A stretch of DNA of 64,000 bases from Acidimicrobiales bacterium. GTDB taxonomy: Bacteria > Actinomycetota > Acidimicrobiia > Acidimicrobiales > SZUA-35. The stretch lies in contig JAWKIO010000005.1 in NCBI GenBank assembly GCA_041394265.1, forward strand, positions 4,007,401-4,071,400, written 5' to 3'. A program made the translations under genes and the position numbers. The notes under the pieces are model-generated. The model made no database searches and was not told where the DNA came from. It saw only the letters and a list, made by a program, of their open reading frames with translations. Shown here piece after piece: positions 38,168-45,664 of this stretch. How positions within the stretch are numbered: the first letter of the stretch is position 1; each line of letters opens with the position of its first letter.

Positions 38168-38605
38168 ATGGTGCTACGACATCAAGACCCGAAGGTCGAG
38201 CGGCTGCGGGCCATCCCGTTCTTCGCCGATGCGGATGATCAGGCCCTGCAACATCTGCTCTCGGCGGCAGATGAGGTGCGGGTGAAAGCAGGCCACGATC
38301 TGATCGACGAGGGACACCACTACGGCGAGGCCTACGTGGTGGTGAGCGGAACGATCGGCGTGAGGGTCGGCGGTGACGAGGTGGCCGAGATCGGCCCGGG
38401 CGAGCTGATTGGCGAACTGGCGCTGCTCACCCACGATGTGGTGTCGAGCGCGACCGTCGTCGCGAAGACCGACGCCGATCTGCTGGTGATTCCGTACAAC
38501 CGTTTCGACCAGATCCTCGACGACAACCCGGCGTTGGTTCGAGCCATCGCCACGCAGCTGGCGCACCGCCTCCGGGCGATGGACGTCCTCTACCGGACCA
38601 GCTGA
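38168..38605 (+). CDS. stand-alone cyclic-nucleotide-binding domain protein
   Basis: 145 aa with IPFF ... G ... GELIGELALL (cNMP-binding beta-roll signature). No HTH follows. Confidence 0.8.
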   Translation: MVLRHQDPKVERLRAIPFFADADDQALQHLLSAADEVRVKAGHDLIDEGHHYGEAYVVVSGTIGVRVGGDEVAEIGPGELIGELALLTHDVVSSATVVAKTDADLLVIPYNRFDQILDDNPALVRAIATQLAHRLRAMDVLYRTS

Positions 38606-38696
38606 TCGCCGGGGCGAGAGTCGAAGGCCTCTGCCTCGGCGGCGCCCGCGGTCGGACAATCGAGTCGACAGCCGTTTGGGGAAAGGGGTCATCCCG

Positions 38697-39062
38697 GTGT
38701 CTGCCAATCATGTCGAACGCCACGGCGAGCTTCGCCGCGGGTTCCGTCAGCTGAGCCGAGTCCAGAGCGAGGTCATGGCGGGCTTCACCTCCATGCACCG
38801 TGCCGCCGTCGCCGACGGTGAGCTGCCGGGTGCGACCAAGGAGATGATGGCGCTCGCCATCTCGATCGTGACGCACTGTGAGGGCTGCATCGCCTTTCAC
38901 GTGCATGATGCCCTCCGCGCTGGTGCCAGCCGAGGTCAGATCGAGGAGACCATCGGCGTGGCGATCATGATGGGCGGAGGACCGGCAGCGGTCTACGGCG
39001 CAACGGCGGCCGAGGCGCTCGACCAGTTCGTGGCAGCGGGGGTGGGTTCCGATGCGGTCTGA
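38697..39062 (+). CDS. carboxymuconolactone decarboxylase / AhpD-like family protein
   Basis: HCEGCIAFH CxxC motif. GTG at 38697 follows GGGGAAAGGGG. The track uses a TTG at 38676. Confidence 0.8.
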
Positions 39063-40788
39063 TCGCTGGCGCGACGCTCGGAAGTCACTCGACGGCCTGC
39101 CCGGCGGCAACGGCCTCAACATCGCCTACGAGGCCGTCGACCGTCACGTCGCGCACGGTCAGGGCGATCGGGTGGCGCTGCGGTGGCGCGGCCGTCACGA
39201 CGAGCACCTCGACCTGACCTACGGCGAGCTGAAGCGCAGGACCGATCGTTTTGCCGGAGTGCTGAGTCAACTTGGCTACCCCCAGGGCGTCGGCGTGGCG
39301 ACCTTGCTCGGGCGGATTCCGGAGCTGTACGTCGCAGCGCTCGGCACGCTGAAGCATCGTGGCGTCTTCACTCCACTGTTCTCGGCGTTCGGCCCCGAGC
39401 CGATTGCGGTTCGCGTGGAGATCGGCCAGATCCAGGTGTTGGTCACCTCGGCGTTGTTCTACCGACGCAAGGTCGCAGCCATCCGGAGTCGGCTCGCCAG
39501 CCTGCAGCACGTGCTGATCGTGGGCGGGGGAGCAGAGGACATCGACGACCCGACCGTGATCGATCTCGAGGCACTGCTCGCTGCTGCTCCCGATCGGTAC
39601 GAGATCGGCCCGACCGATGTCGAGGACCCGGCGCTGCTGCACTTCACCAGCGGCACGACCGGGCGCCCGAAGGGAGCGATCCACGTGCACGAAGCCGTGG
39701 TGGCGCACGCCTCGACTGGGCGCGTGGTCCTTCGACTTGAGCCGGGCACGACGTTCTGGTGCACCGCCGACCCTGGTTGGGTCACCGGCACCTCGTACGG
39801 GATCATCGCCCCGCTCGTCAACGGTGTGACCAGCGTGGTCGATGAAGCCGACTTCGATGCGGAACGGTGGTACCGGCTCCTGCAGGACGAGCAGGTCGAC
39901 GTCTTCTACACCGCGCCGACCGCGCTGCGAATGCTGCAGCGGGCCGGAGGCGAGCTGGTTCGAGGTTTCGACCTGTCGGCACTTCGGCTGGTCGCGAGCG
40001 TCGGCGAGCCGCTCGATGCCGAGCTGGTCGGCTGGGCACGATCGGTGTTCGCCGTTCCCGTGCTCGACACCTGGTGGCAGACCGAGACCGGCGGCATCAT
40101 GATCGCCAACCTGGTCGATCAAACGGTCAAGCCGGGATCGATGGGCCGACCCGTTCCGGGCATCGAGGCCGGGCTGCTTCGGGTGGGGACTGATGGCGAA
40201 GTCGTGGTCGACGCCGACGGCGCGCCGATCGAGGTCGACGATCCCGACGAGATCGGTGAGCTGGCGTTGGTCGCCGGTTGGCCGTCGATGTTCCGCGGCT
40301 ACCTCGGCGAAGACGAGCGCTACCGACGTTGCTTCGTCGGCCGGTGGTATCACTCGGGTGACCTTGCCCGACGCGATGCATCGGGTTCGTACTGGTTCGT
40401 CGGGCGCAACAACGATCTGATCAAATCTGCCGGTCACTTGATCGGTCCATTCGAGGTCGAGTCGGTGATGAACGAACACCCGGCGGTCGTCGAATCGGGT
40501 GTGATCGGTCTGCCCGATCCGACGGTCGGCGAGATCGTCAAGGCCTTCGTGGTGCTCAGCGACGACGCCGCTCCGAGCGACGAGCTTCGCAACGAGCTCA
40601 TGGCCCACGCTCGCAAGGGCTTGGGAGCGGCGGTGGCGCCCCGGTCCATCGAGTTCGCCGCCGACCTGCCCCACACTCGCAGCGGCAAGATCATGCGTCG
40701 GCTCCTGAAGGCGCGCGACCTGGGCCTCGATGAAGGCGACACCTCGACGCTCGAGGTGCCGACGGCGAGGGAGGTGGCAACGCCATGA
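39052..40788 (+). CDS. AMP-forming acyl/acetyl-CoA synthetase-like adenylating enzyme
   Basis: [23 protein letters not shown] and [12 protein letters not shown] motifs. Start overlaps the AhpD-like stop by 11 nt. Confidence 0.88.
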
Positions 40789-43946: not shown

Positions 43947-44203
43947 CCATACTCACCGCCGACCAAGCGCTCGCCATCACGATCGACGCTGTCTCGAGTG
44001 TCGCCCCCGACGTCGCCGAGGAGCTGCCGACGCTGGATCGCTCCATCGACTTCTGGGAAGAGTTGCAGCTCGACTCGATGGACCATCTCAACGTGATGAC
44101 GGCCCTCGCCGACCGTACGGGTGTGACGATCGAGGAACGCGACTATGCGAGCCTGCGATCGCTCGATGCGATCGCTTCGCACCTCGCCGCCCACTCCACC
44201 TGA
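43943..44203 (+). CDS. acyl/peptidyl carrier protein-like (phosphopantetheine-attachment motif)
   Basis: ATGA overlap with the E2 stop. 86 aa, acidic. ELQLDSMDHLNVM resembles the carrier-protein DSL/DSM serine motif at the start of helix 2. Confidence 0.65.
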   Translation: MTILTADQALAITIDAVSSVAPDVAEELPTLDRSIDFWEELQLDSMDHLNVMTALADRTGVTIEERDYASLRSLDAIASHLAAHST

Positions 44204-44254
44204 TCGAACCCGGCGGGCGCGATCGTCATCGAAGCTGCACAAGGAGCGCCGACC

Positions 44255-45664
44255 ATGGCCAGGAACAGTCGACCCGAACACCCCATGCTCACGTTTCTCG
44301 GTGGCGCCGGGACCGTCACCGGCAGCCGGTTCCTGATCGAGACGCCCGTCTCGACCGTCCTCGTCGATTGCGGCCTGTTCCAGGGCTTGAAGGACCTTCG
44401 ACTTCGGAACTGGCAACCCTTTCCGTACGACCCGAAGGCGATCGACGCCGTCGTGATCACCCATGCCCACATCGATCACATCGGCTACCTCCCCAAGCTC
44501 GTCCAACTCGGATTCCGCGGCAAGGTCTATTGCACGCAGGCGACCGCCGACCTGGCTGCCATCGTGCTCCCCGACAGCGGTCACCTGCAGGAGGAAGAAG
44601 CCGCGTTCGCCAACCGCACCGGCTACTCCAAGCACCAGCCAGCGCTCGCGTTGTACACCGAGGACGAGGCGAAGGCGTCGTTGCGTCAACTCCGGGCGGT
44701 CGACTTCGGAGCGCCGACGTTGGTCACCGCGGACGTCACCGTCACCCTCCGCCCCGCCGGGCACATCCTCGGCGCCTCGACGGCAACCGTCGAGCTGGCG
44801 CCGTCCGGGCGCCGGATCGTCTTCTCGGGTGATCTCGGTCGACCGTCGCACCCGCTGCTCGTGCCGCCGGAGTCCCCGTCGGATGCCGACATGGTGGTGA
44901 TGGAGTCGACGTACGGTGGTCGCCAACACGACGACGAAGGAGCGATCGATGAGTTCGCCTCGGTGATCACCCGAACGGCGAGGCGTGGTGGCAGCATTGT
45001 CATCCCCGCCTTTGCCGTCGACCGAACCGAGGTGGTGCTCCACTGGCTGCGGGAGCTGATGGCGACGGAGCGCGTACCGCAGCTCCCGGTGTACGTCGAC
45101 AGTCCCATGGCCCTGCGAGCCCTCGGGGTCTACCGGCGAGCGATCGGGAACGGCAGTGCCGAAGTCCGGTCCGAACTCCGCGGCGGGCCCGATCCGTTCG
45201 ACACCGGTCAGCTCCATGAGGTCCGCTCGGTCGAAGAGTCGAAGGCGCTGGCCGACATCACCTATCCCTCGATCATCGTGTCGGCTTCGGGGATGGCGAC
45301 CGGCGGACGCGTCCTGCACCACCTTGCTCGACTGCTGCCCGATCGACGCAACGCCGTCGTGCTGGTCGGCTTCCAGGCCGCTGGGACCCGGGGCCGTCGG
45401 CTCGCCGAAGGGGAGACCGAGATCAAGATGTTCGGCCGCTACCTACGGGTGCGGGCCGAAGTGGTGTCGATCGGGTCGTTCTCCGTCCACGCCGACCATG
45501 GCGAACTCATGCAGTGGCTCGGCGCCGCCGAGCCGCCACCCGAGACGGTGTTCCTCGTCCACGGCGAATCGGACGGGGCGGAGGCGCTCAAGACATCGAT
45601 CCGAGATGACCTCGACGTGGCGGCGGTGGTGGCGAGACCGATGGAACGGGTCCGACTCGACTGA
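44255..45664 (+). CDS. MBL-fold beta-CASP family hydrolase (RNA/DNA-metabolising type)
   Basis: HAHIDHIGYLP (HxHxDH), ESTYG, and a C-terminal SVHADHGEL motif like beta-CASP motif C. An alternative start is the ATG at 44285. Confidence 0.8.
   Translation: MARNSRPEHPMLTFLGGAGTVTGSRFLIETPVSTVLVDCGLFQGLKDLRLRNWQPFPYDPKAIDAVVITHAHIDHIGYLPKLVQLGFRGKVYCTQATADLAAIVLPDSGHLQEEEAAFANRTGYSKHQPALALYTEDEAKASLRQLRAVDFGAPTLVTADVTVTLRPAGHILGASTATVELAPSGRRIVFSGDLGRPSHPLLVPPESPSDADMVVMESTYGGRQHDDEGAIDEFASVITRTARRGGSIVIPAFAVDRTEVVLHWLRELMATERVPQLPVYVDSPMALRALGVYRRAIGNGSAEVRSELRGGPDPFDTGQLHEVRSVEESKALADITYPSIIVSASGMATGGRVLHHLARLLPDRRNAVVLVGFQAAGTRGRRLAEGETEIKMFGRYLRVRAEVVSIGSFSVHADHGELMQWLGAAEPPPETVFLVHGESDGAEALKTSIRDDLDVAAVVARPMERVRLD

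Follow-up and report, generated by a model that had tools for sequence, protein, structure and literature searches.

A conserved gene module combining an acetate ligase and pyruvate dehydrogenase-type E1 and E2 with a dedicated acyl carrier protein in Acidimicrobiales and other bacteria

Contig JAWKIO010000005.1 of an Acidimicrobiales bacterium was analyzed over a stretch of 64 kb (GC ~67%), referred to below as the window. At 38168-45664 on the forward strand the window carries eight co-oriented open reading frames (ORFs), g1 to g8 (Table 1), all of which translate without interruption. Five of these, g3 to g7, encode an AMP-forming acetate ligase, the alpha and beta subunits of a pyruvate dehydrogenase (PDH)-type E1, a dihydrolipoyl acyltransferase (E2) and a dedicated acyl carrier protein (ACP), and the same five genes were found in the same order in several phyla. 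Judged from gene content and order, the conserved functional unit is these five genes and not the eight. The ACP is proposed, at a little short of an even chance, to be a tethered surrogate of coenzyme A (CoA) that carries acetyl groups between the E2 and the ligase.

The eight ORFs are closely packed. Overlaps of 11 nt (g2/g3) and 8 nt (g5/g6) and ATGA overlaps at g3/g4, g4/g5 and g6/g7 were read from the translated sequence, and gaps of 70 nt and 51 nt separate g1 from g2 and g7 from g8. The order, coordinates, overlaps and domain content given for the eight ORFs in the first-pass annotation were borne out by translation and by profile searches, each of its domain calls being upheld with Pfam and NCBIfam models, and the divergent ppdK gene that it placed upstream of g1 is present (Table 1). 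A promoter and terminator scan of 37900-45900 gave no signal exceeding the shuffled background.

Conservation was determined from a pattern scan of the GTDB species representatives (one genome each), which returned 204 relatives of the ACP. Eighty loci were fetched, and the 68 with enough upstream sequence were treated as informative; genes were called by tblastn with the window proteins. The order ligase-E1 alpha-E1 beta-E2-ACP recurred in 65 of these 68 loci of other species, so the gene arrangement exceeds chance by far. The lineages comprised Acidimicrobiia (many of them Ilumatobacteraceae), Thermoleophilia, Nanopelagicales, Enhygromyxa, Sulfurimonas and Azospirillaceae. The exceptions were loci L010 and L011, where the ACP gene has moved behind three genes resembling those for universal stress proteins (USPs), as read from translations, and L017, which carries a gene fusion described below. 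Overlaps of 4 nt were recorded for E2/ACP in 50/68 loci, for ligase/E1 alpha in 40/64, for E1 alpha/E1 beta in 46/68 and for E1 beta/E2 in 30/66. The core order was also present in all three of the ligase-anchored look-ups that were chosen without reference to the ACP; one of these contigs was labelled Nitrospira in its source annotation, and one of the three ACP calls was a 50-aa fragment without a Pfam hit, probably owing to assembly frameshifts. Using tblastn of the ACP against PLSDB, the core was located on plasmids of cultured Rhodococcus, Sinorhizobium, Ralstonia, Burkholderia and Tropicibacter, where the NCBI Prokaryotic Genome Annotation Pipeline (PGAP) names the genes acsA, pdhA, alpha-ketoacid dehydrogenase subunit beta, dihydrolipoamide acetyltransferase family protein and acyl carrier protein. 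Core modules were numerous in metagenomes beyond the 204 GTDB relatives. The literature was searched, and no paper describing an acsA-pdhAB-E2-ACP unit was found.

These counts bear on what had been claimed for the locus. The wiring of E1 alpha/beta and E2 genes to a carrier protein gene, proposed in the first-pass annotation, stands, as E2-ACP adjacency is conserved across the relatives, and the adenylating enzyme that it tied to them belongs to the conserved core. The eight-gene operon as a functional unit held for the five core genes; its remainder did not, the cyclic-nucleotide (cNMP)-binding gene adjoining the core in only 3/68 loci and the beta-CASP gene in only 2/68.

The product of g7 matched the Pfam model PF00550 (PP-binding) with 23.5 bits (cut-off 20.8), and a profile of its family retrieved ACPs from the PDB (best E = 6.8e-07), the closest being the ACPM subunits of complex I. 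The AlphaFold2 model (pLDDT 93.8) has four helices, with helix II beginning at residue 45, and the top Foldseek matches of this model were all ACPs (TM 0.7-0.83). Phosphopantetheine would presumably be attached to Ser45 of the motif LDSMDHL, the residue with which helix II begins. Asp44-Ser45, Asp47, Leu49, Glu65 and Tyr68 were invariant across several phyla, including in the ACPs that had been found via the ligase; the DS(M/F)D motif is invariant in the ACP family, and Glu65 and Tyr68 are specific to this family. A collection of 5.8 billion proteins contained 19 close ACP homologs, all with an invariant LDSMDHL. The ACP profile, run against 1.84 billion cluster representatives, gave 179 matches below 1e-10, and nearly all of the best 150 of these were stand-alone proteins of ~85 aa. 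By sequence and by predicted structure, the 86-aa ORF is a genuine ACP. It had been read as a carrier protein in the first-pass annotation, a reading that hung on a match to carrier-protein models and on a conserved serine, and it has both, together with the ACP fold.

E1 alpha scored 414 bits against the equivalog model TIGR03182 (PDH_E1_alph_y; cut-off 393.85) and 286 bits against Pfam E1_dh. E1 beta scored 395 bits against the subfamily model NF006667 for PDH E1 beta (cut-off 321) and contains the Pfam domains Transket_pyr and Transketolase_C. In the E2, Pfam identified Biotin_lipoyl (51 bits), E3_binding, the peripheral subunit-binding domain (PSBD; 49 bits), and 2-oxoacid_dh (183 bits); the lipoyl Lys was read in the translation in the motif TEKA, and the catalytic motif as DHRATDG. 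The closest solved structures are mitochondrial-type PDH E2s, e.g. 8x03 (204 bits). The E2 falls under all NCBIfam equivalog cut-offs, its best model giving 205 against the 445 needed. The same lipoyl, PSBD and catalytic architecture was present in 120/120 of the closest E2 homologs, which are annotated simply as PDH E2.

As the first-pass annotation had stated, no dihydrolipoamide dehydrogenase (E3), ketosynthase or phosphopantetheinyl transferase was detected among the window ORFs scanned with Pfam, which comprised most of the longer ones with a high GC content at third codon positions. Three window proteins have a Pyr_redox_2 domain (3415-4968, 17167-18429 and 26563-28128), none with Pyr_redox_dim. 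The weight that had been placed on the missing E3 is slight, since the E2 keeps its PSBD. Genes for E3 are commonly unlinked to those for E1 and E2, and the retention of the PSBD in the window E2 and in all 120 closest homologs indicates that E3 is most likely supplied in trans. The module E2s were also observed to stop 2-3 residues past a conserved Pro (PEEL or PEDL; PELS in the window, 43935-43946). Their C-terminus appears to be a few residues short of the hydrophobic tail of canonical E2 cores, and this might affect assembly beyond trimers.

The ligase scored 786 bits against the NCBIfam equivalog NF003313, acetate--CoA ligase (cut-off 729), and has the Pfam domains AMP-binding and AMP-binding_C. 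Its closest solved structure, matched over the full length, is the AcsA 9g79 (471 bits). Alignment to the Salmonella enzyme (SeAcs) and to AcsA showed that the acetate-pocket residues (Val/Thr/Val/Trp, including the motifs GWVTG and SVGEP) are kept, as is the A10 catalytic Lys in the motif SGKIMRR. The loop bearing SeAcs Arg191/194 is absent from all AcsA-type enzymes and is thus uninformative on the CoA pocket; the equivalent of Arg584 is kept. The A8 motif reads GHLIG in the window as against the usual GxR(L/V)G. The A8 Arg (SeAcs Arg526) was replaced by Leu or Met in 58/58 of the locus ligases and in 107/107 of the closest database homologs showing the motif, and is retained in 9g79. This Arg is described as highly conserved and as stabilising the thioester-forming conformation (PMC10455477). 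The A8 change marks the ligase subfamily and points at the thioester half-reaction.

Gene by gene, such results are also what would be expected of an ordinary accessory PDH and an acetyl-CoA synthetase, both making acetyl-CoA. The ACP would then not be their substrate but a subunit with a structural or regulatory role, or else would serve an unlinked pathway as carrier, e.g. the synthesis of fatty acids or lipids for storage. E1 alpha, E1 beta and the ligase clear the curated thresholds for PDH and Acs, no canonical motif is missing from the E2, which also has its PSBD, and PGAP annotates the genes of cultured strains in this way. Genes for a wax ester synthase/diacylglycerol acyltransferase (WS/DGAT) and a short-chain dehydrogenase/reductase (SDR) lie 7-15 kb upstream in the window, and ACPs serve as structural subunits elsewhere, the complex-I ACPM proteins being the closest profile hits. 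What this explanation leaves unaccounted for is the near-universal co-occurrence of the ACP in a fixed order and with a 4-nt E2 overlap across phyla, the existence of a dedicated ACP subfamily, the ligase-ACP and ACP-GNAT fusions, and the family-wide A8 change from Arg to Leu/Met. No fatty acid synthase or ketosynthase genes accompanied the module among the neighbours examined. The explanation is regarded as rather improbable, although to be taken seriously.

A role of the ACP in lipoylation would be one form of it. In a Sulfurimonas metagenome-assembled genome (MAG), an LplA-type lipoate-protein ligase gene (L077, 834-1622) is divergent from the module and adjoins it, which suggests that this module was acquired with the means to lipoylate its E2. 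Because of this gene, the lipoyl arm of the E2 there would be in use and the ACP would not be needed for lipoylation, and a lipoylation role is unlikely. The ACP as an octanoyl carrier for lipoylation was rejected on the same ground and because no lipB or lipA was linked.

In the scheme favoured here, E1 would decarboxylate pyruvate and reductively acetylate the lipoyl arm of the E2, and the acetyl group would then pass from the E2 to the phosphopantetheine thiol of the ACP, instead of or besides free CoA. The ligase would load the ACP at the expense of acetate and ATP, or would unload it to acetate with ATP formed from AMP and pyrophosphate (PPi). Dihydrolipoyl-E2 would be re-oxidised by a PSBD-recruited E3 encoded elsewhere, and possibly also, in loci that have it, by the AhpD-like CxxC protein. 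Sharing of acetyl through the ACP is suggested because PDH, from pyruvate, and the ligase, from acetate, deliver the same C2 unit and both end on a pantetheine thiol. The surrogate-CoA model is put forward as the simplest one to account for the strict conservation of five coupled genes, for an ACP family of its own, for the fusions and for the lack of any other ACP-using enzyme nearby. The weaker claim, that the ligase or the E2 or both acylate the ACP, is somewhat more probable than the model as a whole. A closed, CoA-independent anoxic fermentation from pyruvate through acetyl-S-ACP to acetate and ATP, with the ligase reversed and substituting for Pta-AckA, is unlikely. This version would fit the neighbouring PPi-dependent pyruvate phosphate dikinase (PPDK), and the Syntrophus enzyme Acs1 has been reported to favour the ATP-forming direction (PMC13404658).

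Fusions of the ACP were recovered with two kinds of partner. At L017 7844-10234, in a locus without E1 and E2 genes, one ORF encodes a complete ligase, a Pro-rich linker and an ACP, with the reading frame and the DSMDH motif intact. Protein P0142, a fragment, has AMP-binding_C followed by an ACP. The junction of P0142 differs from that of L017, and the two ligase-ACP fusions are therefore taken to be independent. A search for further ones with the C-terminal part of L017 gave mostly gene fragments and only the known P0142. The first-pass annotation had offered a second loading route or CoA recycling as the role of the ligase, and it is the loading route that fits these rare fusions. In P0183 the ACP is followed by a c4 domain, and in P0286 by a GNAT-like domain.

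The c4 family (~330 aa) was found near the core in 32 of the 82 loci examined (three members are listed in Table 1, among others). Scans of single c4 sequences were without a Pfam hit. A c4 profile matched, over its N-terminal half, the Pat-type lysine acetyltransferases (MtPat 4ava at 1.2e-12; 4orf, 4nxy and 3f8k), the structures concerned being those of MtPat, MsPat, SlPatA and Sulfolobus Pat, and the NCBIfam model 'acetyltransferase Pat' was matched by 13/13 members scanned. The C-terminal domain has three invariant cysteines (C..CP..G..CPL), and c4 may be a lysine acetyltransferase that senses redox state or metals. The recurrent CoA- or pantetheine-binding enzymes near the module were the ligase, the E2 and c4.

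An acetyl-ACP made by the ligase or the E2 might mainly serve as acetyl donor or regulatory partner of a Pat-type GNAT, so that the ligase or USPs would be acetylated according to the supply of pyruvate and acetate. The frequency of c4 near the core, the two ACP-GNAT fusions, the GNAT gene beside the Rhodococcus module and the A10 lysine retained by the ligase all agree with this, the A10 lysine of Acs being the acetylation target of Pat enzymes. It is nevertheless quite unlikely: no c4 GNAT was found in the window, a GNAT was absent from most of the loci examined and lies outside the invariant core, and an entire E1/E2 complex would be extravagant as an acetyl supply for signalling. The ligase-ACP fusions also resemble the adenylation-carrier didomain of carboxylic acid reductases, and Zn-dependent alcohol dehydrogenases (Zn-ADHs) are common in related islands. 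Both would be in keeping with a module that runs reductively, from acetate through the ACP and dihydrolipoyl-E2 to acetaldehyde or an acyloin via E1, as an NADH-consuming sink under reductive stress. Such running would consume ATP when energy is limiting, the E1 is of the standard PDH type, and an E1 step run backwards is energetically unfavourable, with no physiological precedent known to us. It is considered barely credible.

The genes around the module in relatives point, by their predicted products, to low-oxygen or dormancy physiology. Ilumatobacteraceae MAG loci are flanked by genes for tandem USPs, a PAS-HisKA_3 kinase, a PNPOx-like protein and a metallo-beta-lactamase-rhodanese protein, as found with Pfam, and by those for a NarL-type regulator and a P-type ATPase, identified solely by reading the sequences. 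The neighbours on plasmids of cultured strains are given in Table 1. On plasmid pDK1 of Rhodococcus sp. DK17, an Rv2632c-like gene (PF08962; L089 2718-3074) overlaps the start of acsA and appears to be co-transcribed with the module; Rv2632c is a gene that we take to belong to the DosR regulon of Mycobacterium tuberculosis. Several of these gene classes are shared by the lxa locus of Burkholderia cenocepacia and the M. tuberculosis DosR regulon (PMC3721108). In the window the island-type genes are those for NAPRTase, the PNPOx-like protein, WS/DGAT, the beta-CASP hydrolase, the cNMP protein and two PPDK paralogs, a weaker signal than in the relatives. No ketosynthase, acyltransferase, nonribosomal peptide synthetase (NRPS) or polyketide synthase (PKS) genes were noticed in the recurrent neighbour families or the individually annotated loci, which is less than a complete Pfam scan of the flanks.

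The last result is relevant to natural-product pathways, where transfer from E1/E2 to a carrier has been proposed: QncN/L/M and NapB/D would prime a glycolicacyl-S-ACP (Peng et al. 2012, as cited in PMC5384830), and the E2-T-C fusion of the Photorhabdus pepteridine pathway is a further pairing of E2 and carrier, with E3 from elsewhere (PMC5384830). Like the module, these systems pair an E1/E2 of the 2-oxoacid dehydrogenase type with a phosphopantetheinyl carrier rather than CoA. The first-pass annotation had drawn the analogy with quinocarcin and naphthyridinomycin, according to which the module would load a (hydroxy)acyl-S-ACP from a ketose or 2-oxoacid for an NRPS or PKS. The E1-E2-ACP adjacency is alike, and so is the proposed E2-to-carrier priming. 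On closer comparison the analogy is a poor one. Both E1 subunits score as pyruvate dehydrogenase, the pocket residues of the co-conserved ligase mark it as acetate-specific, the neighbours are of stress and low-oxygen types, and NRPS, PKS, ketosynthase and condensation genes were absent from the scanned window ORFs and from the relatives' neighbour families and loci examined. A loader of this kind is very improbable here. The module differs from these systems in having no assembly line, in likely handling acetyl from pyruvate, in its obligatory acetate-specific ligase and in its spread over several phyla, with stress-type genes alongside in some of them. E2-to-carrier priming has been proposed before, only in natural-product pathways (PMC5384830); what is new is a widespread module in which a PDH and a subfamily of Acs enzymes are joined with an ACP of their own.

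A number of points weigh against the surrogate-CoA model and its low-oxygen setting. The canonical motifs of the E2 show no detectable loss, so plain use of CoA is possible, and the ligase clears the NCBI equivalog threshold for an ordinary acetate--CoA ligase. Carrier-loading adenylation domains also conserve the A8 Arg, and its loss does not in itself indicate that the ACP is used. The ligase-ACP and ACP-GNAT fusions are rare, and no E2-ACP fusion was present in the 120 closest E2 homologs or in the best 150 of the 179 ACP-profile hits. The L017 fusion probably arose via deletion of E1 and E2 genes, because P0303, from a normal module, shares 77% identity with its ACP part. An AMP-forming ligase working toward ATP needs a supply of PPi, and its source is unaccounted for. 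No USP was found in the window ORFs scanned. For the DosR-box-like palindrome GGGACNNNNGTCCC the window gave two matches, both distant from the operon; more would be expected from chance alone, and such palindromes were rejected as evidence. Low-oxygen regulation in the window would be an extrapolation from the relatives, and no report of hypoxic induction of this module was found in the literature. Finally, we infer the acetylation of the ACP, the acetylating enzyme, the direction of flux and hypoxic expression from the gene-level observations.

The remaining genes of the eight are lineage-specific or accessory. The product of g2 matched PF02627 (CMD) with 76.4 bits and TIGR00778 (ahpD_dom) with 55.6 bits, and has the CxxC motif HCEGCIAFH. 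An AhpD-like homolog lay beside the core in 39/68 loci, either upstream of the ligase gene or just after the ACP gene, and was absent from the plasmid loci of cultured strains. The product of g1 matched PF00027 with 60.8 bits, is without a DNA-binding domain and weakly resembles the regulatory domain of mycobacterial Pat (NF058543, E = 3e-08). For g8, Pfam gave Beta-Casp (109 bits), RMMBL (57 bits) and Lactamase_B (48 bits), and the protein is probably an RNase. In Burkholderia pyrrocinia a homolog of g8 (49% identity) lies beside genes for a Zn-ADH, three USPs, a response regulator, Fnr and SulP. As this homolog sits in a locus with lxa-type gene content, g8, and probably g1, look like fellow stress-island genes and not pathway enzymes. 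Among the genes listed for the B. cenocepacia lxa locus are those for a 'metal-dependent RNase' (BCAM0300) and a CRP-family regulator (PMC3721108). A thioesterase-like pathway function for g8 was considered and rejected, given its presence beside the core in so few loci and its independent recurrence in an lxa-type locus.

The divergent ppdK arrangement (88-90% identity) did not extend beyond the closest relatives, L001/L003 and L006. Between ppdK and g1 a palindrome GTCA-N6-TGAC (CGTCACTTTCATGACG) is located at 38083-38096. The block GGTCACTTTCATGAC..TTCGCCCC around it is (nearly) invariant in the window, L001 and L006, and the flanking intergenic sequence diverges; the palindrome may be an operator, a candidate site for a CRP/FNR-type regulator. 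A second PPDK paralog is encoded at 53902-57144 (-); in L001 this second copy also occurs, ~8 kb downstream of the module and with 52% identity to the first. Large proteins with TPR and CHAT (caspase-like) domains are encoded at 12528-15494 (-) and 45692-47917 (-); one of these genes is convergent with the beta-CASP gene, a position conserved in L001. At 28758-31955, 6-9 kb upstream of the module, genes for the PNPOx-like protein, the WS/DGAT wax-ester/triacylglycerol synthase and an SDR form a group reminiscent of the storage-lipid genes in dormancy regulons. The NAPRTase of the window (1085-3220, +) was found in a 711-aa stop-to-stop ORF with ~200 residues before the first domain match.

Among the relatives, two loci have unusual arrangements downstream of or within the core. 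On the Tropicibacter oceani plasmid, E1 alpha and beta are fused (L088 4760-6757, 665 aa), and a gene for a PF20603 'Bacterial hydrolase' (L088 8228-8743) begins at the last base of the ACP gene. In L085 (12708-13400 and 13773-14717) a second PP-binding protein (230 aa) is encoded directly after the ACP, with histone-deacetylase-family and nitroreductase genes nearby.

Table 1. Genes of the locus in the window, the upstream neighbour, c4 family members and module surroundings on plasmids of cultured strains.
Feature	Location	Coordinates	Strand	Product or neighbouring genes
g1	window	38168-38605	+	145 aa, stand-alone cNMP_binding protein
g2	window	38676-39062	+	AhpD/CMD protein, ~95-128 aa; TTG start uncertain
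g3	window	39052-40788	+	578 aa, AcsA-type AMP-forming acetate ligase
g4	window	40785-41750	+	321 aa, PDH-type E1 alpha
g5	window	41747-42736	+	329 aa, E1 beta
g6	window	42729-43946	+	405 aa, E2 dihydrolipoyl acyltransferase
g7	window	43943-44203	+	86 aa, dedicated acyl carrier protein
g8	window	44255-45664	+	469 aa, beta-CASP metallo-beta-lactamase hydrolase
ppdK	window	35306-38023	-	905 aa; Pfam PPDK_N, PEP-utilizers, PEP-utilizers_C; divergent neighbour of g1
c4 member	L007	3795-4775		
c4 member	L049	3637-4617		
c4 member	L017	13128-14060		
Module surroundings	Rhodococcus sp. DK17 pDK1			GNAT, AAA_33 ATPase, PfkB-family kinase, USP, GAF sensor kinase, response regulator
Module surroundings	Sinorhizobium fredii CCBAU 45436 (plasmid)			USP, Hsp20, NAPRTase, FtsH, BON
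Module surroundings	Burkholderia sp. JP2-270 (plasmid)			CBS, phosphoribosyltransferase, NAPRTase
Module surroundings	Ralstonia wenshanensis (plasmid)			B12-dependent ribonucleotide reductase
Module surroundings	Tropicibacter oceani (plasmid)			E1 alpha/beta fusion; P-type ATPase

The module was compared with known systems. With the heterotetrameric-E1 PDH complexes of mitochondria, alpha-proteobacteria and Gram-positive bacteria it has in common E1s scoring at the PDH level, and an E2 with a lipoyl-Lys, a PSBD and the motif DHRxxDG. It differs from them in having no linked E3 and an E2 below the equivalog cut-offs; its genes are, moreover, always flanked by those for the acetate ligase and the dedicated ACP, with stress-type genes around them in several relatives. 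With the AcsA-type synthetases that are regulated by GNAT acetyltransferases (AcsA/AcuA of Bacillus subtilis, mycobacterial Acs/Pat) the ligase has in common its similarity to AcsA (9g79) over the full length, its acetate pocket, its A10 Lys and its frequent Pat-type GNAT neighbours. Unlike these enzymes it has Leu or Met at A8, is always in an operon with E1, E2 and ACP genes, and is occasionally fused to the ACP in the manner of an adenylation-thiolation didomain.

In M. tuberculosis, AhpD reportedly takes electrons from dihydrolipoyl-E2 in a peroxidase relay of Lpd, DlaT, AhpD and AhpC, said to have been described by Bryk and colleagues in 2002. An AhpD-family CxxC protein coupled to a lipoyl-E2 is common to that relay and the module, whereas the module has no linked AhpC and its AhpD-like gene is accessory. 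By analogy, the AhpD-like protein could act as a lipoyl re-oxidant in the module. M. tuberculosis is not known to us to carry the module. The surroundings of the module in relatives share with the DosR and lxa islands genes for USPs, Hsp20, a PfkB-family kinase, an Rv2632c-like protein, a P-type ATPase, B12-dependent ribonucleotide reductase, CRP/FNR-type regulators, a putative beta-CASP RNase, NAPRTase, and CBS and PNPOx-like proteins. The paper on the lxa locus lists Pta-AckA, and its main text mentions neither 'acyl carrier' nor 'acetyl-CoA' nor the module (PMC3721108).

The presence of the module on plasmids of culturable strains (Rhodococcus sp. DK17 and S. fredii CCBAU 45436) makes the hypothesis directly testable. 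Should the ACP prove to be a bystander, the locus would be an accessory PDH-plus-Acs operon that is correctly annotated gene by gene. Should it replace CoA, this would be, to our knowledge, the first known transfer from an E2 to a carrier outside natural-product assembly lines. Transfer from an E2 to a carrier protein would then be placed in core carbon and energy metabolism, a new Acs subfamily would be recognised by its A8 change from Arg to Leu/Met, and a concrete biochemical role would be assigned within the poorly understood low-oxygen and dormancy islands of aerobic soil, water and host-associated bacteria.

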